Below, in pieces: positions 5,694 to 54,971 of a stretch of 56,479 bases of DNA. The translations under genes were made by a program, and so were the position numbers. The notes beneath the pieces are model-generated. The model was not told the DNA's origin. It saw only the letters and a list, made by a program, of their open reading frames with translations, and did no database searches. How positions within the stretch are numbered: position 1 is the first letter of the stretch; every line of letters starts with the position of its first letter. Origin of the DNA: an uncultured virus (IMG/VR IMGVR_UViG_3300001041_000009) (Duplodnaviria > Heunggongvirae > Uroviricota > Caudoviricetes); IMG/VR virus record IMGVR_UViG_3300001041_000009, positions 62,001 to 118,479 of that record, one strand, 5' to 3'.

Positions 5694-6404
5694 ATGACTA
5701 AAAAAGAATTCTTTAAACGGAGAACTTCCCTACAATGTCTACAAATATTCTTTAATGCTTTTGTATCAATGTCTATAGCTAAATTAATATTCGATAATAT
5801 CATAACAGGCCTTATTCTATTTCAATTAATTCAAATGTCTTCACAAGGAGTATCTTTAATATGGACAACATATTTAACCAATAGTCGAACCCGTTCTCTT
5901 GAATGGCAGAAAAGAATTCTTCCATATTATACTAAAATGAAATATTGTTTAGTTGTACTTAATCTAATATACCTGTCAATCGTATTAACAACTGGGTTTA
6001 AATATTTATTTTTAATGATGTTCATCTTTATGTTTCTCAATCCACTTATGGGTTTAATAAATGGTATTGAATCTAGAGTAGAAACCATAATAATGGATGC
6101 TAAGCATGTTGAAGATGTTACTTACTTATCATCACGGAAAGGTATATTTACTACATTATCAAGTATTGCCGGAACGGGATTTTCTTCAGGTGTATTATGG
6201 TTTACTGGTGCAACTGTATTACCATTATCAGTTTGTGTGATAATACAGCAAGGTATTAATATTATCGATGAAATTGAAATGAGTGGATATATACATAAAT
6301 ATATGAAAGAATTAAATGAATACTATGATACTCAGATAAGTGAATTAGGTGGTAAGAATAAATATAATGAAGTTATTATGAGTGATGAGATTAATATCGC
6401 ATAA
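5694..6404 (+). CDS. Multi-pass membrane protein
   Basis: About 5-6 hydrophobic segments; early motif at 5653. Confidence 0.6.
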   Translation: MTKKEFFKRRTSLQCLQIFFNAFVSMSIAKLIFDNIITGLILFQLIQMSSQGVSLIWTTYLTNSRTRSLEWQKRILPYYTKMKYCLVVLNLIYLSIVLTTGFKYLFLMMFIFMFLNPLMGLINGIESRVETIIMDAKHVEDVTYLSSRKGIFTTLSSIAGTGFSSGVLWFTGATVLPLSVCVIIQQGINIIDEIEMSGYIHKYMKELNEYYDTQISELGGKNKYNEVIMSDEINIA

Positions 6405-6522
6405 AAATAGCTAAGGCTATTTTTTTTGTATTAATAAGCTTAATCCTTAATTCTATCTAATTTCGAATACATATTAATAAATAATACAGTATTTGTATAT
6501 GCTCAGAGGAGGTGATTTTATA

Positions 6523-6942
6523 TTGGCAGGTTTCGGATCGGAAATTGTTTTTGGTCTAGATAATTTTCAACAACAAAAAGTTTTAAGTAGTAAAGATTCT
6601 ATAGTTCAGGTTTTATTAAACTTATTCTTTTTACGTCCTGGAAATATTCCAAGTTTACCATGGATTGGTATTAATATCAGATCATATCTATATAAGTTTG
6701 AAGAACAAATCGATGCCGAAGAACTAAAAGAAAAAATATATAATCAATGTAATGCTTTAGTTCCATATTTAAATCTGGGTGAAGTAAAAGCTTTTGTTGC
6801 ATCTTATAATGAGAAATCTGTCTTAATCATTGTAATTCCTATAATCATTGATGGTGTTACAACTGATGTTCTTTTCGGTTTTGGTAAAAATTCTGCGGGT
6901 GAAACATTGTTTAATTATCAATTTGATAATACCGCGAATTAA
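6523..6942 (+). CDS. Baseplate wedge subunit, T4 gp25-like
   Basis: LNLFFLRPGNIPSLPWIGINIRSYLY pattern; TTG start after GGAGGTG. Confidence 0.6.
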   Translation: MAGFGSEIVFGLDNFQQQKVLSSKDSIVQVLLNLFFLRPGNIPSLPWIGINIRSYLYKFEEQIDAEELKEKIYNQCNALVPYLNLGEVKAFVASYNEKSVLIIVIPIIIDGVTTDVLFGFGKNSAGETLFNYQFDNTAN

Positions 6943-6962
6943 AATAATAAGGGGGATTTAAA

Positions 6963-8495
6963 TTGAGTGGTATGGATGACGAAAATGTATTAAGAGATAC
7001 TGGGATGGATTTAAGCCAGCTAAAAAAAACTGCAACTCAGATAACTAAACCAACTGATACTGATGAGGATCTTACAGTATCCATTGGAAGTGATTGGGCT
7101 TCAGGTATTAAAATACACCAACCAGTAGTTGTTAATACTGATATCCCACAACTGCCTAATGATGGGGTAAGTTTATCTGATAAAAACCAAGAATCATATG
7201 ATGGTCCAGGTCTTGTTATTAACACGAATGAATTGGATCAGCAAGTGCAAAAAGCACCAGCACCTCCTGGCTTATCATACGATGTGATGGATAGTATTGG
7301 TGAATATATGCAGGAATATGATAAAGATACAGCCGAGATTATAGCCAAAAAGGAAGAGGAAGCTAAACAGAAGAAATTAGATGATGACGAAGAGTCGGAT
7401 GAAATGACACAAGATGAATTTGATCGCACTTATAATGAAGCAGTAGTTATTATTGATAAAACCGGAATGGGTAATGTAATTAATTTCACAGATGCTGAAA
7501 GAGATAAACTTGAACGGGCTAAAAAGATCATACTTGAAGAAGTTGAAACGATAAGTCTGAAAACTATTAAGAGTAAAAAGATTAAGAAAAAAGACGGTCT
7601 TGAAACTCTTATCAAAAGACATTCTAATATACATTCAACCCCTATAGTATTATTAGCATCCGGTTATACGGCCACGATACGAGGATGTTCAACGTATGAA
7701 GTAATGGCGTTAATGAACGATTCTCAAAATGCATTGTTAGATACTGAAAAGAAATGGTCATTGATCCATTCTAAAATAGAAGATACCAGTATTGGTAAGA
7801 TGGAATACAATGATTTCCTCCACCATACTGCGGCCATTGATTATAACATATTCTTATATGGTTTACTATGTGCAACTTATCCAGATGATGATAAAATCAC
7901 ATTGAAGTGTGAAAAATGTCCTACAGAATTCAGTCATCTTTATTCGGTAAAATCATTAATCCGGGCTGAGAAAATGACTGAAGCTATGAAGCACACAGTT
8001 TCCAGCACAATTGATGCATCACATTCAGTTGAAAGCGCCAAATCACATTATGCAGAAGCTCCGGTTAGTAATACGAAAACTATTAAATTACCAGTAAGTG
8101 GTATTATAGTAGATGTGTTCGTACAGTCGGCATATGACTTTATTAATAAATCTATCAAGGAATTATCAGAAAATAAAGAGGTTAAATATAATCAAGCCTC
8201 TGTTTTATCATCTGTCGTAAATAAGATGTTTATACCCGATCCAGATAATGAAGAGGAATATTATGAGATTGAAGGGGCATTCGAAATTGCCAAAGTGATT
8301 TATTCCCTTACTGACAATGATATTATCATCTTGACAAAACAAGGAGATTCTATCCTAGAAGGATTGAGTTTCGAATTCGGTTTAATGAATGTTCAATGTC
8401 CTAATTGTAAATATCACACTCAATCCTTACCAATGGATTTAGAAGCCATACTTTTTTACAAATATCAACAGGCAATGAGTACAAAAGTCGAATAA
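6963..8495 (+). CDS. Baseplate hub / tail assembly chaperone-like protein
   Basis: 510 aa, acidic N-terminus, two CxxC pairs (CEKC, CPNC); CTTTTTT slippery site near the 3' end. Confidence 0.5.
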   Translation: MSGMDDENVLRDTGMDLSQLKKTATQITKPTDTDEDLTVSIGSDWASGIKIHQPVVVNTDIPQLPNDGVSLSDKNQESYDGPGLVINTNELDQQVQKAPAPPGLSYDVMDSIGEYMQEYDKDTAEIIAKKEEEAKQKKLDDDEESDEMTQDEFDRTYNEAVVIIDKTGMGNVINFTDAERDKLERAKKIILEEVETISLKTIKSKKIKKKDGLETLIKRHSNIHSTPIVLLASGYTATIRGCSTYEVMALMNDSQNALLDTEKKWSLIHSKIEDTSIGKMEYNDFLHHTAAIDYNIFLYGLLCATYPDDDKITLKCEKCPTEFSHLYSVKSLIRAEKMTEAMKHTVSSTIDASHSVESAKSHYAEAPVSNTKTIKLPVSGIIVDVFVQSAYDFINKSIKELSENKEVKYNQASVLSSVVNKMFIPDPDNEEEYYEIEGAFEIAKVIYSLTDNDIIILTKQGDSILEGLSFEFGLMNVQCPNCKYHTQSLPMDLEAILFYKYQQAMSTKVE

Positions 8496-9138: not shown

Positions 9139-12100
9139 TTTAATACCAATTAAGAAGTTTATTCAAGTTAATTCATTACAAGAAATCACTGAAATCATAA
9201 TATTTGAAAAAGGTAGTATACCAACATCTGGTGGTTTACTATCTACAAATATATTCGGTGTATCTGTTAATGAACGACGAGAAACTTATGCTTATATTAA
9301 ACTAAATGGGCACTTCTTACACCCATTTGTTTATAAGTTATTAAAACGTATGAATAGAAATTTTCAATCTATTGTATATGGATCAAAGAATTTTATAATA
9401 GATAAAAATGGACAATTGGTTGAAGCTGAGGAATCTGGTGAGACTGGATTAGAATTCTTATATAAAAATTGGGAAAAAATAAACTTTGAAAAGAATGCCA
9501 GTTCTATACGTAGTGAAAGAATTGACTTGCTGAGATCGTATGATAAAGATACTTTATTTACTGAGTACTGGATTGTAGTGCCAGCATTCTATCGTGATGT
9601 TAATTTACAATCAGCAACACAGGGTAAGATTAGTCATCATGAGATCAATGATAAGTACGCTAAATTATTAAGATTCGCAACTGTGTTGAGGAACTCCAAT
9701 AATTTTGATTTTGTACTTAATGGAACTAGGGCTAAGGTTCAGGAAGTCTTAGTAGAAATTTATGATTTGCTCAAAGGTAGAATAGAAAAGAAGAATGGAT
9801 TAATTAGAAAAAATTTAATGGGTAAATCGGTTGATTTCGGATCGAGGAGTGTGGATTTACTGCACGTAGCTCCTTAATTGTCGGGAATCTCCTTAGAACT
9901 TAAACCACTTAAAGTAACAATGTTTAAGTTTGGACAATCCGCAGCCAAGATTCTATCTAATAGAATAAGGTTCAACGACTATCACACGGAAATATGGTTA
10001 TATTAATTTACCGTGAGTTAGATACATTATTGTATTGAAATGGGAGTTCAGGAATTCTTAATTTCCTGAAGATATAGTCTAGTATCCTAATGAAAATTAG
10101 GGAAGTTCATGAGAGAACTGTATAGAGTTATATTCTATATGAATAAACGAATTTCTGCACCTATATTCAAAGCAAATAAACCATCTGAGATGCAAATAGA
10201 TTTTTATCATGTTGGTATTCCTCTTGCACAAACATGTTCATTATTTACACCATTTATAATAAATTGGGTTAAAAATTTCTTCCATAGAGAATTAGAGAAG
10301 GTTGGTAATAAGTATCCTGTAAGAAATCCGGACGGTTCCATGGGATATGTGAAATTAAAAGATCCCTCATTATATTTCAACGAAGAATATCTTAAAAAAC
10401 AAATTGATAGATTCATATTTAGTGTATCCGATAGATTTACACCAATTGAACTTCCCGTCGAGGAACCTAGATCTGATGGGAAGAAATTATATATGCGATT
10501 TATAGGAAAAGATTATAAACCAGGGGTTCCTGAAACTGAATCTCCCTTAGTACAAAGGAAGGCAACTTGGTGTGATATTTTATATCAAGCGGCAGTTGAT
10601 GTTACATCAGATAAAATGGTATTCGTTACGAGATATCCTATTTCAGATTATTTCAGTAGCTTTCCTAACAAAATATCAGTCCTAAGTACCCACCAAACTA
10701 TACCGATGTTTATTGGAAATAGAGTCTATACGAATTATCCTAGGATCGATCTTAGTTTACCTAAAGAAGAAATATCCACTCTATTTGCAGATACTGTGAG
10801 TATGTCAAATTTATATCTACCTGGTTTAAACGGAGATAAAAGTTGTTGTCTCCCTTTGCTAGAAATAGCTTAGTTAAAAATCCTGTGAACGCTTAACAGG
10901 CGGTGTATGGGTATCACAATACTCATGCTAACGGTAGAAGTGAAATAAGCATTGACGAATAAGCTTCGTAAGAGAACCTAAGGTCCTGAAATATGGATAG
11001 CTGGAAATACCGTGTCAAGCTTTAATTGATTTACGAAATTCATATATTGTAAAAAAATACTTTTATACTAACTTATATATAATAAGGGGGGTTATTATGT
11101 ATAATGATGATCTAATAATTGAATCGAAAAAACATTTTGGTGTAATATATATGTTGAGAAATAATATAGATGGTAAAATTTATATTGGTCAGACAATAAA
11201 TCTACATTCACGACTTAAGGATTATAAGTATAAAAAGCTTAATAGGAAATCGAATTTATATCATATTATAAAAATAGTTAATGAATATGGATTTAATAAT
11301 TTTGATTGCAGTATAATAGACACATGCACCTCTAAAAATGAAATGAACGAAAAAGAGGTATATTGGATATCAACTTTAAAAGCAAATGATCCTAATATTG
11401 GATATAATAAGAAAACAGGTGGGGTCGGTGGAACTATGAATAGTGAGTCTAAATATAAGATGAGTGAAAGTACAAAATTATTTAGACATTCTGAACAAAC
11501 TAAACGAGATAAATCTAAACCTATAATTGCATTTAAAGATGGGTTATTTCATATATTCCAAGGAGCGAAGTCATTTGCTGATTCAATAGATAGTAATAAA
11601 AGTTCTGTAACTCATGCGGTTCGATTTGGACGTATTATTCAAGGATATTTTGTATTCTATTGTGATAAAAATTCCCGTAATGAAATATTGATTAAAATAG
11701 AGTCTAAACTAAATGATACACCCAAAATAAAAACCCCCATGTTAAAATTACAATATGTGAAAATATGTAAATTAATTAGAGAAGATGTAGAGACTAACGA
11801 AAATTACTATCATATAATTATATAGTAGTTAGTAGTGTACTGACTAATTTGTGGGTTAGTTGGGAAGTGCAGGACACCTAATTAATAATTTATTATTATA
11901 CGGTGAAGATATAGTCCATGCCATATGAAAATATGGAGTTTACATGTACGACGGTCATTGTATTGCCGTATTTTCCTTAACTGTCGGGAAACTCCTTATA
12001 GCTTCTTTAATGGAAGATTGGACAATCCGCAGCCAAGTCTCTTATATAAGAGAAAGGTTCAACGACTAGAAGTAATTCGTAGATATAGTTATATATCGAA

Positions 12101-12378
12101 ATGGGAAAACAATAGATTTATTCTATTGAAGAGATAGTCTAATATCCTATATTAATATAGGGAAGTTCATAAGAGAACTGTATGGATTAAATATCTATAT
12201 GAATATTTTGGATCAGGTTACAGTAAAGGGTTTATTTAGTCAAGAAGCTAATAAAGAAGCTATTGAAATTATGACATCTAAAGCTCATATTCTAAATATC
12301 GCTGGTAGTAATATGAGAAAGACAACCAATGAGGGTGTTCATACACTATATATGATGACACGTTTCGAAAATGATTAA
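9128..12378 (+). CDS. Phage multisubunit RNA polymerase beta' N-terminal/catalytic subunit, 4 exons (9128-9852, 10150-10837, 11947-11955, 12211-12378; 529 aa)
   Basis: Spliced product reads GLIRKNLMGKSVDFGSRSV|ISAP, TRYP, and LNGD|YDG|DQVTV (NADFDGD equivalent). Confidence 0.92.
9853..10149 (+). ncRNA. Group I intron (no ORF, 297 nt)
   Basis: P1 GUGU/GCAC with U.G; core TTAATTGTCGGGAA, AATCCGCAGC, GTTCAACGACTA, AAGATATAGTC; terminal G; splicing restores frame. Confidence 0.92.
10838..11946 (+). mobile_element. Group I intron with GIY-YIG homing endonuclease
   Basis: P1 GGAGAU/GUCUCC; core GCTAACGGTAGAA, AATACCGTG, GTAGAGACTA, AAGATATAGTCC; ends ..TACATG. Confidence 0.9.
11097..11825 (+). 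CDS. Intron-encoded GIY-YIG homing endonuclease
   Basis: GVIYMLRN..KIYIGQT..R, E..WI, GYNKKTGG; 3' end overlaps intron P7. Confidence 0.92.
   Translation: MYNDDLIIESKKHFGVIYMLRNNIDGKIYIGQTINLHSRLKDYKYKKLNRKSNLYHIIKIVNEYGFNNFDCSIIDTCTSKNEMNEKEVYWISTLKANDPNIGYNKKTGGVGGTMNSESKYKMSESTKLFRHSEQTKRDKSKPIIAFKDGLFHIFQGAKSFADSIDSNKSSVTHAVRFGRIIQGYFVFYCDKNSRNEILIKIESKLNDTPKIKTPMLKLQYVKICKLIREDVETNENYYHIII
11956..12210 (+). ncRNA. Group I intron (no ORF, 255 nt)
   Basis: P1 ACGGU/GCCGU; P/Q/R/S elements present; ends ..TATTTTG before GAT CAG (DQ). Confidence 0.92.
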
Positions 12379-15212: not shown

Positions 15213-15653
15213 ATGGATAAAATAATTCTTATTGGTGGTGTACCATTTAAAGCTGTAGAAAATCCTGATGGAACGCATTCTGCGGCAGCTATATTAGACG
15301 GAACTGATGCTACTGGTGTATCACAAGCAACTGGGGGTACTGGAGCCAGAGGATGGTTATCTAGTATATATAGAGCATTATGTGGTAGTACGTCATTAAC
15401 TGGGGCATTAAAATTAGTCACTACTGCTGGAACCAGAACTCAATTACCTAATATACCATGTCGGGAGGTAACTGTTATCGGTTTGGATACTAATACAGGA
15501 AGTGTCTTCGCCGGTGGAGTAAATGTTTCATTGGCTGTTTATGGGGTGAAGCTTGGTGCCAAGGAAGCATTCACATTTGCTGTAGCCAATGCTAATCAAA
15601 TCTATATTGATTCATCTATAAGTGGGGAGGGAGTCAGTTATGTCGCAATCTAG
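15213..15653 (+). CDS. Probable tail/virion protein
   Basis: Gly/Ala/Thr-rich, beta-rich; late motif at 15169..15180. Confidence 0.5.
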   Translation: MDKIILIGGVPFKAVENPDGTHSAAAILDGTDATGVSQATGGTGARGWLSSIYRALCGSTSLTGALKLVTTAGTRTQLPNIPCREVTVIGLDTNTGSVFAGGVNVSLAVYGVKLGAKEAFTFAVANANQIYIDSSISGEGVSYVAI

Positions 15654-17802
15654 GTATGATCCAAGTGCTGGTATTAAGAAAGATCTTATGACGTATAAGG
15701 CAGAGAATGTGCAGGAGTTAGCAACAAAAGCACGTCAAGTAGACTTGGATTTAGAAAGCGCAAGAATAACAAATCTTGCAACACTTTCGGCAGGAAGCAC
15801 TACTGGAGATGCTGAGTTAATTGACGGTAGAGTTGGTGCAGACGGAGCAACCTATGCAAATATAGGAACCTCAATAAGAGGGCAGATTGGCAAAATAGAT
15901 AATTTAGTTGGCGATAAGTTGTCTGGCACAGCAACCGAATCTTATGCTGATTTAACAATTGGCACGTTTAACGATGCTGATGGTTCAGAAGTTGTGTCAA
16001 ACATAAGGGCTAGGGTGATACTTGAGTCCGAATTCGTCGCTAACCTGTCCTGCAAGCTAGGTTATCAGTTTCTTATAAAAGGGTGTGATATAAAGGGAAC
16101 TGCTATTACAACAATAGGTGGATGGATTGCGTCGAACGCTGTGTATATAAACCCGTTAAGCCATAAATATTTATACATTATAGTAAAAGATAATAGTGAT
16201 GCGGATATAACTGGGATTGATTTAGATAGCATTTTAAGTGTTATAAGTCATAACACAGTTATATTGTCAAGGGTTGAAACTACTGTTAGGTATGGTGGGG
16301 ATGTCATAAGTGCTTATGCTAATCTGATAACTGGTAATATTGATGCTACTGGTAATAAGTTTATTATCAATACGAGGGCATTTATTGTGCTTCCCACGTA
16401 TAATCTAAGCGGATTTGAGGCGGCAACTGGTTTTCAGCTTGTCGTGAATGCTAATAACGATGGGTATGGACAGCCTTTTGAATTTATACAAGATTGGTGT
16501 ACGGAATACGCTTTTGATAGTGATTACCTATATGTCGCAGTTATTATTAAGGCGATTGACGGTAGTAATGTTACAAATTTAACGTCAAGTCTTACTGTAA
16601 ATTATTATTCTGAGAAAAGAAAACTTGCAGCATATGGAGAAGTGCAAGCACTTTCGCAAGAACTATCACTACAAGGGAATGGACAATACATCGGTAAAAA
16701 TATTTTGTGGTTAGGAACATCAATTCCTGAACAAGGGCACCCTATCCTAGTCGGTACGGCAATTGGAGCAACCGTGACTAATAAAGCTGTCGGTTCGTCA
16801 ATGATGCGTATAGGTGGTTCTGTTTATGATACCTCTGAGTTGGGTGATGACCTTGGAATAACTGGTCTATGGATGGCAAATGTACTGCGTACATTATCAA
16901 TGACACAGGAAGAACGTAGGCGGTTGTTTGATTGCTGGAAAACAACGGATCGTAAAGCCTATCTTATAGCAAAGGGTTATACTGAAGGAGAAGTAACAAG
17001 TGTTATTGGCTATGGGGATATGCTTGCAGATACATATGTTAGTGTAGACCCTGTAACACCTGTTATAGGGATTCCGGCTTTAAAACCAATTGACGTTTAT
17101 GCGAATAATGGTGCAACATATAATAGTATGCGATGGTTGGCATATTCTTACTGTTGGGATGATTCCATGGATATCGAAGGTGATTTAAGCATAACTGGGA
17201 AAATCACAGGTGCTATGCTTGGACGTATTGAGTCATACATTGCTACTTCGGATGCAATTGTTTTCGAGCATTTTAGGAATGATGCCACAGGAGACGCTTC
17301 TGCTTTAACCTATACTAGCGTCCCAGCAACTTCAAATGATAGGCATTATGCTGTGGGTGCGTTTATTTATCTGGTACAACAAATACGTTTACGTAAACCA
17401 CGAATAAAAATACTAATGGTTGGGCATTACGACAATGACGACAGTAGATATCAGTTAGGACATGTTTGGGAAGCAGAGGAAACGGCATCTAATTACTTTG
17501 GATTTCCACTTTATAAGCTATGGGAAGAAAGTGACGTAAGGGCAAGGACACAAATTACAACCACTGGATATTGGGATGTGTCTCATGTATGGCACGATAC
17601 AGGTTATAACGGGTCGAATCATGTGGGTTCAAATCTTGAAAATCTAAACGAAAACCCTCGTCAAGTTGATGGTGTGTGGGTGCATGACTTATCACTTCGG
17701 CAAATATGGATGTACGACGATATACATCCAATGTCCGATTCCTGTAAACAGCACTTTGCAGGCTTGATTTCAGCATGGATGAAAACCCAATCTATATTGT
17801 AG
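15622..17802 (+). CDS. Tail fibre/spike-like protein with C-terminal SGNH-like esterase
   Basis: GSTTGDAELIDGRVGADG tail motif; ILWLGTSI (block I), NKAVGSS, DDIHP (block V); higher GC than flanks. Confidence 0.65.
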   Translation: MGRESVMSQSRYDPSAGIKKDLMTYKAENVQELATKARQVDLDLESARITNLATLSAGSTTGDAELIDGRVGADGATYANIGTSIRGQIGKIDNLVGDKLSGTATESYADLTIGTFNDADGSEVVSNIRARVILESEFVANLSCKLGYQFLIKGCDIKGTAITTIGGWIASNAVYINPLSHKYLYIIVKDNSDADITGIDLDSILSVISHNTVILSRVETTVRYGGDVISAYANLITGNIDATGNKFIINTRAFIVLPTYNLSGFEAATGFQLVVNANNDGYGQPFEFIQDWCTEYAFDSDYLYVAVIIKAIDGSNVTNLTSSLTVNYYSEKRKLAAYGEVQALSQELSLQGNGQYIGKNILWLGTSIPEQGHPILVGTAIGATVTNKAVGSSMMRIGGSVYDTSELGDDLGITGLWMANVLRTLSMTQEERRRLFDCWKTTDRKAYLIAKGYTEGEVTSVIGYGDMLADTYVSVDPVTPVIGIPALKPIDVYANNGATYNSMRWLAYSYCWDDSMDIEGDLSITGKITGAMLGRIESYIATSDAIVFEHFRNDATGDASALTYTSVPATSNDRHYAVGAFIYLVQQIRLRKPRIKILMVGHYDNDDSRYQLGHVWEAEETASNYFGFPLYKLWEESDVRARTQITTTGYWDVSHVWHDTGYNGSNHVGSNLENLNENPRQVDGVWVHDLSLRQIWMYDDIHPMSDSCKQHFAGLISAWMKTQSIL

Positions 17803-17867: not shown

Positions 17868-18116
17868 TTGGGAGGTAATAATATGAGTTCTATCGAATCC
17901 CTAACAGAGTATTTAAAAAAACTAGATAGTAAAAAGGAAAACCCGTTTACATTTCGTTTAAGCTCATGTTTTTTAAGTGGTTCAAATTGCAGTTGTTGTG
18001 GTGCATATAAAAATGGTAGATGCACTTATCACGATAATGATAAATCTGAAATTGTCTTAACTAAAGCAATTGAGATATTAGGATTAGAAAATGTATTAAG
18101 TGTGTGCAGATTATAA
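17868..18116 (+). CDS. Small Cys-rich hypothetical protein
   Basis: 82-aa ORF, GGAGG RBS. Confidence 0.5.
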   Translation: MGGNNMSSIESLTEYLKKLDSKKENPFTFRLSSCFLSGSNCSCCGAYKNGRCTYHDNDKSEIVLTKAIEILGLENVLSVCRL

Positions 18117-18137
18117 GAGCCGAAAGGCTCTTTTATT

Positions 18138-18320
18138 ATGGGAAGGTGGGTGAAAAATATTTTGAGCAATAAAAAAATGCAAGAATATTGTTATGCCAAA
18201 AAAGATGTGAAATGTCCGAAACAGGGTGAATATTCACGACGAGGAATTTGTTTATCATGTGAGCATTGTCCCAAAATAATATGGTTTGGTTGCGGAATAC
18301 CTGCAGGAATTGGTGACTAA
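18138..18320 (+). CDS. Small Cys-rich hypothetical protein
   Basis: 60-aa ORF, CLSCEHC. Confidence 0.45.
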   Translation: MGRWVKNILSNKKMQEYCYAKKDVKCPKQGEYSRRGICLSCEHCPKIIWFGCGIPAGIGD

Positions 18321-18729
18321 CTCTGTAAATTCAGATCCATCTTTGGTAGATTTAATGTCGTAGTTGACGCATTATACGACATAATTAATAAATTGTCAAA
18401 TCGTGAATTATTAGTTACTTTCGTGATAACAAATTATTAATTATTTGATAACGAAAGGAAGTAATGATATGATGAATGAATTAATTTTAAACATTTATAA
18501 AGAAGAGATTTTTAATAATATATACGATAAAAATAAATATTTATCTATTGATCCAAGCAATATGGGTTGCATTTGACGGCATTAGTATGGTATACTCTTA
18601 CTAGAAATAGGAAGGAGTTGTGCCATACTATGCCGTCCCTTTATCTTGATTTACTCAAACTTGAGATTTTAGAGAATTTTCCTGAATTGAATACAGATTT
18701 GCAAGTAAATACATTAACTGGTATATTAA

Positions 18730-18880
18730 ATAAATACAATATCTCCATCCTGTCGTGTTAGTAGTACTTGTTAGATACCACAATAACTTAACCGTTAAGG
18801 TTCTTTAAACCGTCCGACCAACGGCGAAATCTCTATTTACGTTAGTTAATAAAGATCCTTTAAATGACTTATAAATATTA
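18730..18880 (-). ncRNA. Putative TnpB omegaRNA (scaffold overlapping tnpB 3' end plus guide)
   Basis: ~133-nt block 18748..18880 repeated at 27429..27561 with an abrupt divergence after ..AACACGACAGGA. Confidence 0.7.
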
Positions 18881-20037
18881 ATAGAAGCATTGTTATCCCT
18901 ACCATCTATATGTCCGCATATTGGACAATTAAAGATTCTTTGAGATAACTTTAACTTAGTTTTAAGTTTATGATTACATTCAGAGCATGTAATGGTACTA
19001 TTAGGTAATGCTAAAATATATTCACTACCATAAAAGTGACATTTATATTTTAACACCTGTGTAAACATAAAGTCACCAACTCTGTGTATACCTCTATTTA
19101 TACGCGTATTACCATCGGACTCTGTTAATAACTCTTTAAAACTAAACTCATCAACTATTACGTTTCTATAAGTCTTAGCTAAGAATGTAGATACCTTCTG
19201 AATATAATCCATTCTGATATTCACTATTTTGACGTGAATATCATTAAGTTTGGTTCTCGCTTTTATATAGTTCTTTGATGGGTTACGTTTATCATACTTC
19301 TTTTTAGAAACTATTACTGAGAGTTTATCAACTTTCTTCTCTAGTTTCTTAATAATTCCCTTCGGAAATTTAGGATTTATGATATCGTTTCCATCAAAAC
19401 AAACTACTGGATTATGTATTCCTAAATCTATACCTACCATATTTTTCTTATGTTTATGCTTTGGGATATCTATTTCATAAGTGAATGATACATAATATTT
19501 AAAATTCTTCATACTAATAGTCATTGTTTTTATATCATAGTGATATAAAAAGCTTATATCTTCAAAAGTTTTCAATGGCATGTGACCGTATTCTCTATTA
19601 ATAATAAAAGAGAATAACTTCTTATCAATAATTTTAACATTACCTTTATTCGTCTTGTATATTCTAAAAGAACCATTTCCATGAATCTTTCTTTTAAAAT
19701 GTAATTTACATCGTTTCTTGTCTTTAATATCTTTAAAGAACTTATTAATAGCTATATTAAAATCACTAGCCACTTCATTCTTTATTGACTTATTATACTC
19801 TTGAGTCCATTCAAATCCCGGTTCCTTTTCTTTCTTAGAGTATATATGAGTAATATAATCAAACTTATCAAAGAACTTCTTTAATGTTTTATCAATAATA
19901 TTACCATTATGCTCTAAAAGGGTATTAAAATATTCTAAAGCATTATTGTATATGAATCTTCTATATCCAAAGCATTTGTTTAAATATATCTCTTGTTCTT
20001 TAGTTGGTCGTATTCTCGTTTTAAAAGTCTTAATCAT
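18805..20037 (-). CDS. tnpB: TnpB RNA-guided endonuclease (free-standing, no tnpA)
   Basis: KTFKTRIRPTKEQ HTH; RuvC GIDLG / VDE / RDNNASINI; CSEC..CPICG zinc finger. Confidence 0.93.
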   Translation of the reverse strand: MIKTFKTRIRPTKEQEIYLNKCFGYRRFIYNNALEYFNTLLEHNGNIIDKTLKKFFDKFDYITHIYSKKEKEPGFEWTQEYNKSIKNEVASDFNIAINKFFKDIKDKKRCKLHFKRKIHGNGSFRIYKTNKGNVKIIDKKLFSFIINREYGHMPLKTFEDISFLYHYDIKTMTISMKNFKYYVSFTYEIDIPKHKHKKNMVGIDLGIHNPVVCFDGNDIINPKFPKGIIKKLEKKVDKLSVIVSKKKYDKRNPSKNYIKARTKLNDIHVKIVNIRMDYIQKVSTFLAKTYRNVIVDEFSFKELLTESDGNTRINRGIHRVGDFMFTQVLKYKCHFYGSEYILALPNSTITCSECNHKLKTKLKLSQRIFNCPICGHIDGRDNNASINIYKSFKGSLLTNVNRDFAVGRTV

Positions 20038-20125
20038 TTATCTTCACCCCCTTTCTTATATTATTTGTTATAAGTATAATAATATCTTATTAGGAATGAA
20101 TTATTAAGACTACTGATTAAGTTAT

Positions 20126-20157
20126 TTCTCTAAGTTTCCTTAAAGCACAGACTATAT
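20126..20157 (-). other. Group I intron remnant (P7'-P9) upstream of tnpB
   Basis: ATATAGTCTGTGCTTTAAGGAAACTTAGAGAA, 32 nt identical to 55215..55246. Confidence 0.85.
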
Positions 20158-20339
20158 AACAAAAGACATATAATTAAAAAAAATAATTATATGTCTTTTG
20201 TTATATATTGGTAAATAATTTACTAAACAGATAATTAAGAAAGGGTAGATTGCTCACTACCTTTTCCCACAGTCCTCCTCTTTTTTATATAAGAAGATGG
20301 ATAAACAATCTTAAATGATCGTTTATCCATCTTCATTTT

Positions 20340-21768: not shown

Positions 21769-23858
21769 TTATAATTGATTCAAGAAATTAAGAAACTCAT
21801 CGGATATCATATCAGAGTTAATATCCAATGTAGTACCCAACTTGTCTCGATTATCATAATCAACACATGTAAATGTTGTATTAAGAATAGTTGATAATAG
21901 ATTAAGTATTAGATTAGATTTCTTTAATTCTTCTAAAGTTGAAAATTTATCTTGCATTAATGATTGATATATAGAAGAATTTTCAATCTTCATTAAGAAT
22001 TTAGTATTTTGAATTGTACGAGTATTTAATTTACCTTCAATGTTACTTGTTAAAACCTGGGGTAAGTAAGTATTTCCTTGGATTTGTAATTTACGTTTAA
22101 GAAGTATTAGTAAGGTTAAATATTGTCTTCGGGTTAATAGATTAAGATCTCGATAATTACCAAAATGTCTAGCATAGAAAAAGAATATGAGACTAACATG
22201 AAATTTATTAATGTGATGATTGATCTTATAATATTCTAATTCATCTTCACTGATCTTAACTTTCATTTTATTCTTAATTCTCTTAATAGTTTTCTTTATA
22301 TTAATCCCAGATAATATAATTAAAGATTCATCAATCTTATTACTGTTAATCTCAAGCTTATCTAATCCTGATAACTTTATATTCATATAGATTATAACTC
22401 TATACAGTTCTCTTATGAACTTCCCTAAATTACTTTAGGATAATAGACTATATCTTCTTCATAATATTATGAAGTTTCTCCACTTCGATTTAGTTATAAA
22501 TCTACGAGTCACACTCTAGTCGTTGAACCTTATTCTTGTATTAAGAATCTTGGTTGCGGATTGTCCAATCTTAAACATTATTACTTATAGTAGTTTAAGC
22601 TATAAGGAAGTTCCCGTCAGTTAAGAGAAAACCGGCTTCTATAAAAAACCGTCGAGATCTTTTTTATTGTTTAACTCAATTAATGAGAATTCATAAGGTT
22701 CTCGTATGAAGTAACCAAGCTGTTTTTCTAAGCATCGTGTTCACATAGGTTGTTAATCTATGCAGTTCTCTTATGAACTTCCCTATAGTTATATAGGATA
22801 TAAGACTATATCTTCTCATCTTAATTAAGATGAGTTTTCTTATTTCAATCTAAACTATAGATCTACGAGTCACACTCTAGTCGTTGAACCTTATTCTTAT
22901 ATAAGAATCTTGGCTGCGGATTATCCAATCTTAAACATTATTACGATTAAGTAGTTTAAGCTATAAGGAACTTCCCGTCAGTTAAAGAAAAGGTGGCATT
23001 AGATTATTTTACCACACTGTTAAAACTGATAATGTTTTTATCAAATGTATATTTGAACATAGTTTCAGAAATTATCTTCTCCTTTAATAGTTTATCAAGC
23101 TCTATTAACGGATCTGTTCCAAATATTTCTCGCTGGTCCCATATAACTCGATGTTTTGTAGCATTCACATTAACTTTAGCCAATGTAGATACCCATAGTT
23201 TATTATAGATATCAACCTCTTCATCATATTTATACATATAGAACAATCGTTCATAAAATTGAAAGATATAATTCGGTTCCTTTAACATAGATGACGAATT
23301 GATAAAATGAAATATGATAGGAACCATTATCTTCATACTCATTGAGATCATCATTAATAGTTTTGCATGTTCATTTGTAAATTCCATTGATTTGGTATAT
23401 TTAATACCATTATGTGAAGTAACATCAACATGGTAATTGTCTTCTACTAAGTGTCGTATTTTATTCTTTAATGATTCTGTAAACAGAATAGAATACAACA
23501 TCTTGATGAAAGATATTAACTTAATAGACTTTTTCTTATTGTCAATAATGTATTTGAGTTTTATATATGACAATAATAACTCATTATCTAAATCATAATA
23601 CTTAATGAAATAATTTAGATAATGACATATACCTTTAGATATAGTGCCATCTTTATTCAGTACATGATCCAAACGTTTCACATATGATTCTTTTTTAATA
23701 ACAAAAGTATTTAAACTTGTTATATTATCCTTGTTAAATATTTTGTCAAATGGTATTATTACTAGTTTTCCATCATGTCGGATAATCACATCCCTTTCTT
23801 CAGGTTCCCATTCATCAACTAATATAACTGAACGTATATCATCATTTGACATTAACAC
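21769..23858 (-). CDS. Putative non-virion RNAP promoter-specificity subunit (AR9 gp226-like), 3 exons (23858-23011, 22732-22648, 22374-21769; 512 aa)
   Basis: Splicing gives continuous FNSVV|LEKQLGYF..KDLDG|LSGLDKLE; early motif upstream; two genes downstream of the chaperonin as for AR9 gp228/gp226. Function is inferred from synteny and size. Confidence 0.55.
22375..22647 (-). ncRNA. Group I intron (no ORF, 273 nt)
   Basis: P1 CGGU/GCCG; P/Q/R/S on minus strand; ends ..ATAAAG. Confidence 0.9.
22733..23010 (-). ncRNA. Group I intron (no ORF, 278 nt)
   Basis: P1 GUGGU/GCCAC; P/Q/R/S; ends ..AACACGATG. Confidence 0.9.
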
Positions 23859-27409: not shown

Positions 27410-27561
27410 GGATATTTTAATTCTATCGTCCTGTCGTGTTAGTAGTATTAGTTAGATACCATAATAACTTAACCGTTTAAGGTTCTTTAAACCGTCCGAC
27501 CAACGGCGAAAATCTTTATTTACGTTAGTCGATAAAGATTTTTTACAACTTATAAATATTA
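27410..27561 (-). ncRNA. Orphan putative omegaRNA copy with a different guide
   Basis: Near-identical to 18748..18880 but with no tnpB ORF; hairpin terminator downstream at ~27333..27366. Confidence 0.7.
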
Positions 27562-27614
27562 TTAACAGGCTTGGTTATCGCCACTATTTATAAGTCTCGT
27601 ATTAACACATAATT

Positions 27615-27755
27615 TTACTCAGAATCAGAATATTTTGTGCCGAAAAATGGAATACCTTCCTTCTCGGCTTTTAATCTACCAATTTCATTTTGAGCATCTA
27701 ATAATTGTAACCTAAGATTTTTTTCACGTTTAGATTCAAAACCAAGAAATCCCAT
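27615..27755 (-). CDS. Small hypothetical protein (46 aa)
   Basis: MGFLGFESKREKNLRLQLLDAQNEIGRLKAEKEGIPFFGTKYSDSE, starts right after the upstream stop. Confidence 0.45.
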   Translation of the reverse strand: MGFLGFESKREKNLRLQLLDAQNEIGRLKAEKEGIPFFGTKYSDSE

Positions 27756-37722: not shown

Positions 37723-40544
37723 TTGGATTCGGATGTAGGAAAAATAATCAGTGAGCTATCCAATAAGATCTTTATTATCTCAAACTTAATGGCTACTAAG
37801 AAGGACTACAAAGCTAATCTAGAGTTGTTCTATGATTATTTAAAACGAGGGTTTGAAGTTAAGGAGTTGAGAACATGCCCAGTGTATTTTAAATTTTCAG
37901 ATAAAGAAGGAGAACAAATTCATACTCTCCAATTAAGACATTTCTTAACAAATTATATGTTTTGGTCACCGATGATGAAGTTGGGTTATATTGATAGATT
38001 GAATGAATCTTATATAGTTGATTGTAGTAAGATATCGGCAGATTATATCAAATCATATGTTGATAGAAAGATAGTTTTACCATTTAGAAAGATTATCAGT
38101 AATACTAAAATGAATAAAGTAATTGCAGATATGATCCACAATCTATCTAGAATATCAACTGACTTTAATATGATATTGGGGTTATCAATTAATATTGAGA
38201 CGTTTATTGACGTAAGCGAACGTATACCTAGATTTAACGAAATCATACGAACGGTTATTCCAGACGGACTTCAACCTACGGAAATAGAATCATTACTAGA
38301 TGATCTAATGCATGAGCAAGTTGCCATTTTAGAAAATGATCCTGTTGGAAATATGCTACAGCCAATACTAAAATCTGGTGCTGGGATTAAACATAAACAG
38401 TTAGCAGAGTTCGCAATTAGTGGGGGGCTGAAGCCGGATCTTTCTGGAAATACAATCCCCCATCCGATCAATAGTAACTTCATAGTAGGGGGATTATCCA
38501 ACATCACTAATTACTATATTGACTCCCTAAAACAACTTGGGGCGGCATAGGTGGACTTATGTTGTAAAACTATTTTAATTGACGGGAAACTCCTTAGAAC
38601 TTCTAATTGAAGATTGGACAATCCGCAGCCAAGATTCTTATATAAGAATAAGGTTCAACGACTAGAGCGTGACTCGTAGATATAAAGTTATATCGAAATT
38701 AATGGAATCTTCTATATAGAAGATTGTGATATAGTCTTGTATCCTAATAAATATTAGGGAAGTTCATAAGAGAACTGCATGGATTAACGACCTATGTGAA
38801 AGTATCGTGGTGGAAGAAAATCATTAATTATGAATAAACTGGTTAATTTTTAGCCATTTCTCTTTTAATTGACGGGAAGTTCCTTACTGCTTAAACTACT
38901 AATGTAATAATGTTTAAGATTGGATAATCCGCAGCCAAGTCTCTTTATAATAAGAGAAAGGTTCAACGACTAATTTAGAGCTCAAAGTGAGTGGGTGTGA
39001 AAACTCTTAAATCGAAATGGAGAGACTCATTTAATTAAATGAGAAGAGATAGTCTGGTATCCTATAGAAATATAGGGAGTTCTTTGTGGACTACATTATG
39101 TAACGAATAATGTCAACTTACGTATGGGTAGATCTGGCCATCAATTACAGGTGGCATTATATAGTAATATATAATGAGAAAATTTCTTTAATTGACGGGG
39201 AACTCCTTAGAACTTCTTAATTGAAGATTGGACGATCCGCAGCCAATACTCTTACTAAGAGAAAGGTTCAACGACTAGAGTAAAAGCTCGTAAGTTTATA
39301 GTTAAACTGAAATAAGAATCATCCATCATTGGATGGTGATATAGTCTTGTATCCTATATAGTTATAGGGAAGTTCATTAGAGAACTGTATGGATTTACGA
39401 TCTATATGAAAATACGTTTGCACGATTAGTAATGCTTTTAACATCAGGAATAAAATTAAGTCCTACTGTTAAAACATGTAATAGCATTCATTCAATTCAA
39501 TACGAAATCAAAACTAAAGAGCATTTAAGACGATTACAGGGAAGATATTATCGTCTTGAGAATACTAGAGATTATAACGTCATTGAAGGTCATGAGGAAA
39601 ATATTGTTGGTAAAACTATCTATGTTAAATCTCCAGCAACTTGTTCAGCTAAAGATGGAATATGTTGGCATTGTTATGGGCAACTATATCATACCAATAA
39701 AGGTATCTCTATTGGTGGATATGCTGGATCAAGAATAACAGAACCTGTATCTCAGAGAGTATTATCAACTAAACACCTACTAACAACAGTTTCGGAAAAG
39801 ATAGAATTCAATGCTGATTTCTATAAGTTTTTCACTATTAATGCAAATGAAATTCTTCTTAATATAACTAATGACGACATTAACTTAAATGATTATTCTT
39901 TAGTTATTATTAATAAAAATATTATTAGTATTAATGAATATGATGATACTGATTTCAATACATTTGTAACTATATTCCATGTTAAACATAAAAAATCTGG
40001 TGAGATTATAGAATGTATGGAATTGAATCAGAAAGACTTATATATATCTCCAGATATAGTTGAGTTAATGAATAAGAGTAAATCTCATAAAGACGCTTAT
40101 GAAATTGACTTTGCTAAAATTGATGATGATTCTAAGATATTCGTATTAGAAATTGAGAATAACGAATTGACACGTCCTCTTTATAACATCATGTATTTAC
40201 TTAATAGAAGTGATCATGTTGGATGTAGATCTGTTGATGAGTTATGTCAAAAGATGTTAGATCTATTAATCGAATCTAAAATTGATTCAGATGCGGTTCA
40301 TGGTGAATTGTTGATACACCCTCTATTAAGACACAGTAAGGATATCTTATATAGACCGGATTTCAGTAAGTATGGTGAAAAAGCTGAGTATCAAATAATG
40401 ACTGTTGAATCCGCATTAGAAAAACATCCTTCTGTCTTAATAGGTTTATCCTTCCAGGCATTAGGACGACAACTTATTAATCCATTAACATTTAAAAAGA
40501 GAGAAGCTTCTTATATAGATTCTTTCTTTAAATCCAGACCATAA
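37723..40544 (+). CDS. Phage RNA polymerase beta' C-terminal subunit, 4 exons (37723-38528, 38808-38843, 39123-39141, 39417-40544; 662 aa)
   Basis: Spliced bridge helix YYIDSL|GGRKSLIMNKLV|MGRSGH|FARLV; SPATC..GICWHCYG; GSRITEPVSQRVLSTKH trigger loop. Confidence 0.92.
38529..38807 (+). ncRNA. Group I intron (no ORF, 279 nt)
   Basis: P1 CCCU/GGGG; P/Q/R/S; ends ..AGTATCG. Confidence 0.9.
38844..39122 (+). ncRNA. Group I intron (no ORF, 279 nt)
   Basis: P1 UGGU/GCCA; P/Q/R/S; ends ..CTTACG. Confidence 0.9.
39142..39416 (+). ncRNA. Group I intron (no ORF, 275 nt)
   Basis: P1 GCCAU/GUGGC; P/Q/R/S; ends ..AATACG. Confidence 0.9.
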
Positions 40545-52384: not shown

Positions 52385-54971
52385 ATGGCTAGAAAATTTG
52401 ATTATGATGTAGACACCAGAAATATATCATTTCTACAGACTGCAATGGATTTACGACAACTTGGTATTAAGAATAATATGTTCTTTTTGAAACTCTATGA
52501 TATGTCATTAAGGGGAGTCGATCCATACTCCCCTTTTTTAACCGACGAACAAATATTCAGAATAATTAATGAGTGTCTTGTTAATCCATGGTATTTTTTA
52601 AGGGAAGTTTGTTTAATCCCAGATCAAGGTGGAACTGGAATTCCGTATCAATTAAATAGGGCGAATTTAGCTGCTACTTGGTGTTTCCTAAATGGAATTG
52701 ATTTATATGAGGTAATTCCACGTCAAATAGGTAAAACACAGTCTGCTTTGGCAATTATTGATTGGAGCTTTTTGTTCGGGACAACAAATTCAGAAATGAT
52801 GTTTTTAAATAAGCGTCAAGAGGATGCTAATGATAATTTGTTGCGAATGAAAAAACAGAGAGATTTATTACCTAAATATTTACAATTTAAAGTTGTTTAT
52901 AATGATGAGGGTAAAAAAGTAGAAGGTGACGACAATGTCAAATCTCTCTCCAACCCAACTAATAATAATAAAATAATTGCCAAACCATCGGCTCGTTCAG
53001 TAGAAGGAGCTGAGGGTATCGGTCGCGGATCAACTCAGCCGATTCAGTACTGTGATGAAGTTGAATTTACCCTTTTTATTAAAACTATAGTTGAAGCATC
53101 GGGTCCAGCATATCTTACAGCCTCTCAAAATGCCAAAAGGAATAATGCCCAATATGGACGTATTTTCACAAGTACACCTTTAACTAGGGCTATGTGATGG
53201 TGATATCACATAGGATTTTCTTTAATTGCGGGGAACCTCTTAGAGTCTAGACTATCAAACTATTATATTTCTATAATAGTGGCTGGGAGTAATTAACCTA
53301 GATTAAGATAATAATGTTTAGAATTGGACAATCCGCAGCCAAGTCTCTGTTTAATATTTAAATAAGATTATACATTCAATTAAACTAATTAATAAAAGAA
53401 GGAGGAAATCGATACTATGCATATTATAATAGCTATGGAAAAGGAAGAATTCAGGCCAGTTACTTATCCGAATATACAAAAAGATAGGTATATGATTAGT
53501 AATTATGGGAAAGTGTTTGATATTAAGAAAGATAAAATACGGAAAATTAATTTTAGAGATAAAAATGGATATGTTAAGATACATTTAAGAGATAATGATA
53601 ATGTCAGAAGATATATAGGTGTGCATCGATTAGTTGCATGGGAATTTTGTAAAGGTTTTGATGAAACTGTCGGGAGGATTATTGTAAATCATAAAGACAG
53701 TAATACTGAAAATAATTATTTTGAAAATTTGGAATGGACAACATATTCGGAAAATAATTTACACGCGGTTGATCATGGGAATAATTATTGTAGAGGAATT
53801 AGTAACAATAATAATGTTTATAGTGAGGAAACAATTAGAGAAATATGTAATATGCTGACACAAAAGTTATCTATGATGAAAATTATGAATTTTTATGGTT
53901 ATAAAGAAAAGAAAGAAAATAATAGTTTTTACGCACTAATTATTGCAATAAAGCATAGGAAACTTTGGAATCACATTAATAAAGAATATAACTATTAAGC
54001 AGAGAAAGGTTCAACGACTAAATAGTAGGGCTCAAGTGAGTGGGTAAAAAAATCCCTTAAATCGAAATAAGAAACTCTCTTATTGATGAGTAATTACTTT
54101 ATTAAGAGATGAAGATATAGTCTAGTATCCTAAAGAAACTTAGGGATGTCCGTATGGACTATATGAATTAACGATTCATATGAATATAAACGGGAGATTT
54201 AGATACTTCAGCAGGTCAGGACGCATTAAAGATTATCGCTACAACTTGTCGTTGGACTGAAAAGTTTTATGATTGGACTAAAGAAGATTTAGATGAATAT
54301 ATTGCAATTAATTCTGAAAGTGGAATCGTCTATATTGAATACCAATATCAACAACTTGGTAAAGATGAAATATGGTTTAAAAGTATCTGTCAGATCTTAC
54401 TGAATAATCCAGTAAAGATTAAAAGAGAGGTCTTCCTTCAAAGAATGAGGGGTTCATCCGAATCTCCTTTCCCCGCAGAAGATTTGGCCACTATTGAAGA
54501 AATGAAGAAGCCAATTAAGGAAGAAATATTTATAAATAAACTATTTAAATTAGATATATATGAACCCTTGAAGAAAGATAGGATATACTTCGTTGGAGTT
54601 GATACCTCTAATGGTTATGGTAAAGATAATACTGCCGTTACGGTATTTGACCCATATACTATAAAACCTGTTGCTGAATTTAAATCACCATATATAGGTG
54701 TAGTTCAGACTATTAAATTTATAACTACTCTTATCAAACATCATATCCCTAAGTCTATATTATGTATAGAACGTAATTTTAATGGTGAAGCCATAATGGA
54801 TTCTTTAAAATTAACAGATATACGCTCTAATTTATACTTTGATAATGATAAAGATCTTGTTTCATCCGGACTTGATGATAAACTTGACTCAGAAGGTATG
54901 TTAAAATTAGAATCAGCTAGACGAAAACTATATGGTGTTTGGACCGGAGATAAGTCCAGAGAAGTTATGAT
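52385..54971 (+). CDS. terL: Terminase large subunit (exons 52385-53179, 54193-54971; further exon(s) beyond window)
   Basis: PRQIGKT Walker A, YCDE Walker B, FTSTP|GDLD, nuclease FVGVD and CIERN. Confidence 0.9.
53180..54192 (+). mobile_element. Group I intron with HNH homing endonuclease in P6 loop
   Basis: P1 CCU/GGG; P/Q/R/S; TCTCTGTTTAATA..TATTAAGCAGAGA brackets the ORF; ends ..TAAACG. Confidence 0.92.
53417..53998 (+). CDS. NUMOD4-HNH homing endonuclease
   Basis: YMISNYGKV; VHRLVA..VNHKDS..NN..NLEW..N..HA. Confidence 0.92.
   Translation: MHIIIAMEKEEFRPVTYPNIQKDRYMISNYGKVFDIKKDKIRKINFRDKNGYVKIHLRDNDNVRRYIGVHRLVAWEFCKGFDETVGRIIVNHKDSNTENNYFENLEWTTYSENNLHAVDHGNNYCRGISNNNNVYSEETIREICNMLTQKLSMMKIMNFYGYKEKKENNSFYALIIAIKHRKLWNHINKEYNY

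Follow-up and report, generated by a model that had tools for sequence, protein, structure and literature searches.

The 56,479-nt window analysed here, the final 56 kb of virus record G000 (118,479 bp; GC 31%), contains a tnpB gene, copy A, that is bounded by a fragment of a group I intron. Has the phage put this nuclease to a new use, or is copy A what remains of a mobile element in decay? An earlier note favoured the first answer, describing a free-standing gene that had escaped from the intron in terL, acquired a new guide and been repurposed as a weapon or regulator, possibly with an altered TAM.

A family of IStrons in one jumbo phage

Close homologs of the copy A TnpB are confined to this phage (four clusters at 84-89%, the next at 43% or less), and none of five related jumbo phage records contained a tnpB relative. 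The family is an apparently TnpA-less group A (IS200/IS605-type) IStron with seven copies in one 272.5-kb jumbo phage, and an exact search with the right-end pattern placed all seven on one molecule, a 272,509-bp JGI contig. Four states of one IStron are represented (Table 1): full (four copies), intron without tnpB (one), miniature (one) and tnpB without intron (one). A 100-kb record (G001) holds three of the seven copies with the same flanks as elsewhere and has no core orthologs in common with G000, and for these two reasons we assign both records to one phage. The terminase piece in the window resembles those of Staphylococcus jumbo phages, and the sequencing runs with matching reads are labelled groundwater metagenome. 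PF01797, the TnpA profile, gave no match above its cut-off in any of five records covering about 248 of the 272 kb; one weak match scored 18.6 bits.

Table 1. Copy A, its flanks and its six siblings (positions in the window unless a record is named)
Feature	Position	Strand	Description
Copy A	18750-20157	-	410-aa tnpB, guide-RNA scaffold and last ~40 nt of ribozyme
Ribozyme 3' tip	20126-20157	-	5' boundary of copy A; identical to 55215-55246
Perfect palindrome	20153-20207	.	55 bp, 24-bp arms, 7-nt loop; arm overlaps copy A 5' junction by ATATA
AACAAATAATATAAG motif and ribosome-binding site	20045-20069	-	AACA-N7-TA; invariant in 6 of 6 copies keeping the region
tnpB	18805-20037	-	IS200/IS605-type RNA-guided nuclease, 410 aa; open frame; PF12323, PF01385, PF07282
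Right end/omegaRNA scaffold	18750-18870	-	Intron 3' end; ends ACACGACAG; 5' limit approximate
Predicted guide	18730-18749	-	Flank 3' of right end; by analogy with six siblings and ISDra2 reRNA
Small ORF	18630-18749	+	ATG-initiated, 40 codons; open frame reaches back to 18567; runs into copy A right end
Predicted hairpin	18575-18637	+	Strong; buries RBS-like AGGAAGGAG and ATG of small ORF; from folding
Sibling B	outside window		Intron and tnpB, 1658 nt
Sibling C	54972-56479	+	Full IStron in terL after ATGAT; window end cuts off the rest; 1648 nt overall
Sibling D	27431-27623	-	193-nt miniature, P1 remnant and right end; lies in a small gene, following CTGAT
Sibling E			Intron and tnpB, 1650 nt, in helicase-like gene
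Sibling F			Intron and tnpB, 1669 nt
Sibling G	G001:C1 ~18061-18650		591 nt; tnpB lost

The siblings define the boundaries of an intact element. All six non-A copies have a GAT/TC left boundary (TAGAT, ATGAT, TTGAT, TAGAT, AGGAT and CTGAT) and a right boundary at ACAG, and all seven copies terminate in the same right-end sequence. Excision of the element in silico gave an open host frame in five of the six siblings (B, C, E, F and D); the sixth, G, lies between the RBS and the ATG of a gene, so that splicing would be needed to join the two. The ribozyme of sibling C, whose tnpB starts at 55335 with a TTG codon, matched RF00028 at 83.9 bits (54962-55244), and those of B, E and F align to it. 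Pairing between the 5' exon and the internal guide sequence in P1 was present in 30 of 30 cells; covariation at position -4 (A-U/U-A/G-U) was statistically weak, with n=5 and 40 of 500 shuffles scoring as high. The names P1, P7 and P9, like that of the S element discussed below, follow general intron anatomy. The miniature D keeps the full guide scaffold and has a diverged upstream stretch in common with G, and D and G could lend guides in trans to the five TnpBs.

Group I introns are also abundant elsewhere in the window (9824-12200, 22380-22990, 38519-39420 and 53197-54240). Some are adjacent or nested (38519-39369 comprises three RF00028 matches), some carry HNH or GIY-YIG ORFs, and terL is interrupted by at least two. 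In a related phage (L059:2020-2934), gyrA is interrupted near codon 186 by an HNH-like group I intron.

Anatomy of copy A

Analysis of the 5' boundary tied copy A to the intron. The reverse complement of 20126-20157 was identical at 32 of 32 positions to 55215-55246, as the earlier note had observed. Of these 32 nt, 30 form the end of the RF00028 match and 2 lie beyond it; we take the segment to be the 3' strand of P7 and P9. The identical run at the copy A 5' end extends for 41 nt with B, 32 nt with C and 32 nt with E. The intron core is absent, again as first described: the Rfam search that recovered the terL copy gave no RF00028 match at copy A, no GAT/TC left end or P1-P8 was present upstream, and identity to the siblings begins abruptly at 20157. 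These observations support an intron-derived tnpB now without its ribozyme. At the junction lies a palindrome that is one of 33 with arms of at least 17 bp in 218 kb (arms 17-25 bp, intergenic in G000 and G001), and the ATATA by which its arm overlaps the junction fits a deletion at microhomology.

Between the ribozyme tip and the gene, copy A retains a promoter-like motif. AACA-N6-TA occurred upstream of 22 of 133 phage genes compared to 5% in shuffles and corresponds to an AR9-type late promoter, as far as the available part of PMC5312081 describes it; the N7 spacing found here was not enriched. A promoter scan was uninformative, with 23 sites where 21.9 were expected. No resolvase (PF00239) was matched in G000.

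The intron 3' end, common to all seven copies, is also kept; in copy A it ends at 18750, exactly where conservation among the copies stops. A consensus fold of the seven copies predicted three conserved hairpins, mostly invariant and with little covariation, and reading by eye suggested a possible GUCG/CGAC pseudoknot.

The flank, the guide and the search for an empty site

Comparison of the seven copies revealed seven different guides, in each case the flank that follows the right end of that copy on its 3' side. The copy A guide thus does differ from that of the terL copy, as claimed, and its acquisition is trivial, since a different guide is the rule in this family and not an exception. By analogy with ISDra2, for which the accessible part of PMC8612924 gives about 16 nt of flank in the reRNA, we predict that these flanks serve as guides. 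The 20 nt downstream of copy A (18749-18730) were unlike the 3' exon of the terL sibling, taken from other records of the phage, and we rejected that exon as the source of the guide.

The copy A guide is antisense to the last codons of a small ORF that runs into the right end, probably an accessory gene interrupted by copy A. Its frame was the best of six (-0.4, the next -8.2) but scored below 95% of core-gene pieces; this weak coding score resembles that of its small neighbours. Protein searches gave no homolog, and matches in the ESM Atlas at 0.75-0.77 are leads only. The region 18560-18660 folds at -37.1 kcal/mol (z -6.15; 0 of 200 shuffles as good), and the hairpin within it, which had no Rfam match, resembles a translation switch. 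A sigma-70 promoter before the small ORF was considered and rejected, the two hexamers being 12 nt apart.

No empty site of copy A was found, and both its TAM and the step in which the guide matches an interrupted gene are accordingly putative. The region from primase to head-tail joining is hypervariable in five relative loci (G002, two in G006, G008 and G009); none of these contains a homolog of the island in which copy A lies or shares anything with the copy A flanks, so no empty site can be read there. Searches by pattern (AT plus 22 nt) had 0 matches in JGI metagenomes, a protein search with the flank ORF found no empty site, and no joint skipping the element occurred among the 15 joints listed, out of 25, from four DNA runs. 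The same island contains a 726-aa tail-fibre-like gene (15622-17802; GC 39%, compared to 26-30% around it), whose N-terminus is common with a paralog at about 5822-7846 of G000. Record G006 has two primase to head-tail-joining regions (C1:6745-7764 and 234081-235100) that differ in their small genes, and could either combine two phages as a chimera or contain a large duplication.

The TnpB protein

The copy A protein has the features of a TnpB nuclease, with one departure at the active site. It scored 195 bits against NF040570 (cut-off 100) and 178 bits against NF038281, below the cut-off of 425, and its predicted model (pLDDT 82.8) had ISDra2 TnpB (8h1j) as its best Foldseek match (E 1.6e-24, TMq 0.75). 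The earlier description of intact RuvC D/E/D and zinc-finger residues holds for D204, D381 and the four cysteines of the C4 zinc finger (351, 354, 371 and 374) but not for the glutamate: the column of ISDra2 E278 aligns to Asp296, followed by Glu297, in five of five phage TnpBs. All 78 other rows of this first alignment (83 rows, with 78 of the 116 distant homologs listed taken in) have Glu at the RuvC-II column. In a wider set of 147 representatives, taken at the 50% level, Asp occupies this column in 21, nine of the 11 best-scoring among them and mostly in the form D-[D/E]-F, and by this alignment the RuvC-II Asp reads as a trait of the clade and not a mark of copy A. The part of PMC10691335 available to us takes conserved catalytic rearrangements in TnpB as active, and by the same argument the presence of Asp across a wider clade suggests an active variant. 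Literature searches on Asp-Asp-Asp TnpBs and on RuvC-II rearrangements listed no paper on such an enzyme by title or the start of the abstract, though the supplements of PMC10691335, which classify catalytic variants, may cover it.

Evidence for an altered TAM was limited to one residue. Copy A alone has Thr at position 129, where four siblings have Lys; phmmer aligns Thr129 to T123 of ISDra2, listed as TAM-interacting in the accessible part of 10.1101/2025.02.11.637750. This is a weak hint in favour of the earlier proposal, set against a gapped alignment of the loop and siblings that also vary there. Within loops 83-87 and 127-133, B and F (both TAGAT) share NKNKGN, and C (ATGAT), E (TTGAT) and A differ. 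Possibly each nuclease is tuned to its own site, to judge from these five sequences.

Selection and the age of the truncation

All five tnpB genes are old paralogs (pairwise dS 0.41-0.64) under purifying selection, the dN/dS check asked for earlier giving 0.11-0.21 for copy A against its siblings and the same range for all 10 pairs. The N-terminal half was the more variable in 10 of 10 pairs, in line with the clustering of differences reported earlier, but to call the RuvC half nearly identical was an overstatement, with copy A and the terL copy matching at 159 of 198 positions over residues 2-200 (80.3%) and 168 of 190 over residues 201-390 (88.4%). The difference cited as an example, YKTNKGNVKI in copy A and YIKQAAVKI in the terL copy, is real, but the terL copy is the derived one, B and F reading YNKNKGNVKI. 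Nor is the terL copy the closest sibling, which is B, with 345 of 389 residues identical compared to 327 of 388, as well as the longer shared run at the 5' end.

Copy A shows no accelerated change relative to its siblings. It has 9 private residues (the siblings 7, 11, 14 and 15), and its private changes (15 synonymous, 12 non-synonymous; ratio 0.18) are still mostly constrained. The ribozyme tip carries no changes between A and B over 41 nt, though dS between the two is 0.55; by our arithmetic a tip that had been neutral throughout should have gathered about 3 to 11 (from the private synonymous rate of A, 15/215, or half the A-B dS). The intron thus seems to have been lost recently, barring gene conversion or another function that preserves the tip, and in that case the intact ORF mostly reflects the time of copy A as a full IStron and is no proof of domestication.

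A decayed IStron as the probable explanation

We consider it likely that copy A is an immobile, non-splicing, decayed IStron that may still cut empty alleles, a reading that includes the case in which it no longer works. On the observed anatomy, sibling junctions and selection, we propose that a full IStron landed after nnGAT in the hypervariable island, on the strand opposite to the small accessory gene, an antisense placement from which splicing could not have rescued that gene. A later deletion would have removed neighbouring DNA together with the left end and the core of the ribozyme, joining the remainder at the ATATA microhomology; as a variant that we rank less likely, an already truncated piece could have inserted directly after TTAT. 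What would remain is the internal promoter-like motif, tnpB and the right-end RNA. Copy A cannot splice, and, with no left end, it cannot transpose. Transcription of tnpB would start from the AACA motif, and TnpB-A, if expressed, would load the right-end RNA and be steered by the flank to an empty allele (nnGAT plus flank) in a co-infecting relative, where repair from A would copy A, the ordinary "cut-and-copy" maintenance. Other decay forms in the genome favour this reading, with G lacking tnpB and D having lost nearly everything, and so do the seven different guides on one contig, the uniform sibling junctions, a guide that falls in the best-scoring frame of the small ORF, a dN/dS within the family range and the unchanged ribozyme tip. 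Against it stand the lack of an empty site, a small ORF that lacks homologs and scores weakly for coding in absolute terms, the constraint on the private changes of A, the fixation of the element at genome-level depth in three runs of one study, and a near-match of the guide in gyrA that is rarer than expected.

The alternative that survives best, though we think it on balance improbable, is that copy A is dead weight, never expressed or with an Asp-for-Glu enzyme that does not cut, and has simply not yet decayed. It draws on the recent truncation, on a spacer of 7 nt in the promoter-like motif where 6 nt is the enriched length, and on Asp in place of the RuvC-II Glu. The low dN/dS in all copies argues against it, as does the occurrence of this Asp in representatives at under 50% identity, which suggests an active variant. 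This alternative overlaps the decay explanation, which needs no activity today.

The near-match in the phage's own gyrA raises a second alternative, which we regard as unlikely, that the guide is tied to this gene. At G001:23904 (minus strand), CTGAT, the junction of sibling D, is followed by 17 of the 20 guide bases, with mismatches at 1, 15 and 18 and 13 contiguous matching bases. The copy A guide, the one named in advance among seven put to this test, stood out, the best sites for the other six in the phage genome having 5-8 mismatches. Three controls at 20 nt, run on 218 kb of phage DNA, gave a gyrA-grade match in 0.4-0.65% (43 of 8494 control guides). With 5-14 mismatches to the guide, all 10 gyrA loci of relatives, at 8 distinct sites, fit it less well than the phage's own, and this excludes the simple idea of a guide aimed at a competitor's gyrA allele. 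Under the alternative considered here, copy A could descend from a copy formerly inserted in gyrA at CCTGAT/TATGG that moved with part of its 3' exon and later gained self-protecting mismatches, or could be kept as an RNA-guided binder or weak cutter that tunes gyrA.

Several observations weaken this case. The chance rate depends on window length, at 12.6% (12 nt), 1.5% (14), 3.1% (16, the known length of a mature guide), 4.0% (18), 0.5% (20) and 27% (24), and a second site with three mismatches exists in the phage without GAT. The guide spells common codons (D-G-D-I-V-F) and has seven unrelated exact matches in IMG/VR as well. One mismatch falls on the TAM-proximal base, and for another TnpB a position-1 mismatch reduced cleavage at a weak TAM, according to the portion of PMC11043419 available. 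The site lies inside coding sequence rather than a promoter, and none of the relatives carries an intron there, the sole gyrA intron seen being 27 codons upstream. There is accordingly only a slim chance, in our estimate, that an Asp-Asp-Asp-clade TnpB without its ribozyme has been kept with a gyrA guide, as the trace of a former gyrA IStron or as an RNA-guided gyrase dial; a former gyrA IStron may have moved with its 3' flank and be self-tolerant through the seed mismatch. If true, this reading would catch an early step of TnpB domestication in a lytic phage, and a functional match would mean that a phage had directed a selfish nuclease against an essential gene of the phage itself.

That copy A has been domesticated to attack the host or a phage competitor, as proposed in the earlier note, appears more doubtful still. 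The intact ORF under purifying selection, the retained promoter-like motif and scaffold, and the private Thr129 aligned to a TAM-contacting residue are consistent with it, and there is a precedent in gp210 of the jumbo phage PhiPA3, which, per the part of PMC11620839 available, is an intron-derived nuclease with the potential to act on phages infecting the same cell. Unlike copy A, gp210 is an HNH, protein-guided enzyme with a demonstrated competitor target in that account; none was found for A. Exact matches to the 20-mer guide in IMG/VR (seven non-self, unrelated) were never preceded by GAT, and all diverge within about 2 nt of the guide end. GAT plus 20 nt had one match in 185,579 GTDB genomes, in an ABC-transporter ATPase gene of a Spirochaetia MAG; it diverges immediately past nucleotide 20, and we dismissed it as chance, at about the IMG/VR chance rate by our estimate. 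GAT plus 18 nt with up to three mismatches was absent from four of four related jumbo phages, a fifth having three 16-mers with two mismatches to the guide, and exact matching against the GTDB genomes revealed no host promoter as a target. The guide also fits the conserved S element at 12-13 of 16 positions in four places within introns, never after GAT, and this too was treated as chance. With no convincing target in related phages, IMG/VR, JGI metagenomes or GTDB and no acceleration in the protein, the idea of a weapon or regulator retains the gyrA near-match as a lead. From one known occurrence of A, the conservation that marks domestication cannot be seen.

Finally, an assembly artefact joining a unique flank to the repeat is very improbable: the 32-nt piece is indeed a repeat, which the left-flank unitig enters by 30 nt, one short of the bridging rule, but a second IMG/VR contig matches at 100% along 7230 bp that span copy A, the 272.5-kb contig has both the same junctions, and unitigs of three runs cross the right junction by 75 nt with even, flank-level depth on both sides, agreement that may stem from one study.

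Relation to known systems and implications

Comparison with published elements suggested that the family is closest to CdISt1/CdiIStron of Clostridioides difficile, in the portions of PMC4227781 and 10.1101/2023.11.20.567912 available to us. Both systems fuse a group I intron to an IS605-type tnpB, have a T-ending 5' exon that doubles as TAM and a 3' CAG that serves at once for splicing and as the omegaRNA terminus, include ORF-less and partial copies and restore the host frame on removal; the published members lack TnpA, and none passed the cut-off in the phage records searched. Unlike CdiIStron as described there, with TTGAT, ATTAT or TTTAT junctions and TCAG ends, the phage family has a looser, degenerate nnGAT junction, ends in ACAG, lacks a tnpA fragment and has the RuvC-II Asp. 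The host here is a jumbo phage, and the phage IStrons tabulated in the accessible part of 10.1101/2023.11.20.567912 are of group B. By sequence, siblings B, C, E and F match group A IStrons, with ribozyme, T-ending junction, CAG end and four of four spliced frames open. Copy A itself, with no ribozyme and no left end, is a derivative of a group A IStron and not a full member.

Copy A resembles ISDra2 TnpB in fold, HTH-WED-RuvC-ZnF layout, 3'-flank guide and GAT-ending motif, and differs from it in sequence (about 24% identity), in the Asp at the E278 column and in having no transposase in the records searched. As a phage-borne tnpB without tnpA or left end it is also reminiscent of the TldR repressors, which the part of 10.1101/2023.11.30.569447 available defines by at least two RuvC mutations, new gene associations and promoter targets. 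In contrast, copy A has one conservative, family-wide RuvC change that also occurs in its mobile siblings; its right end can be identified, and no promoter target was found. Compared to a free-standing homing endonuclease with a target in a gene next to it in relatives, copy A lies in an island without a homolog in the five relative loci, and gyrA is not its neighbour.

As a decay product, copy A is ordinary, and the phage that carries it offers a tidy natural series of one IStron. With four states that share one scaffold and a loose nnGAT, this family lends itself to direct tests of how broad the TAM is, whether guides are shared in trans and whether a RuvC with Asp in place of Glu is active.
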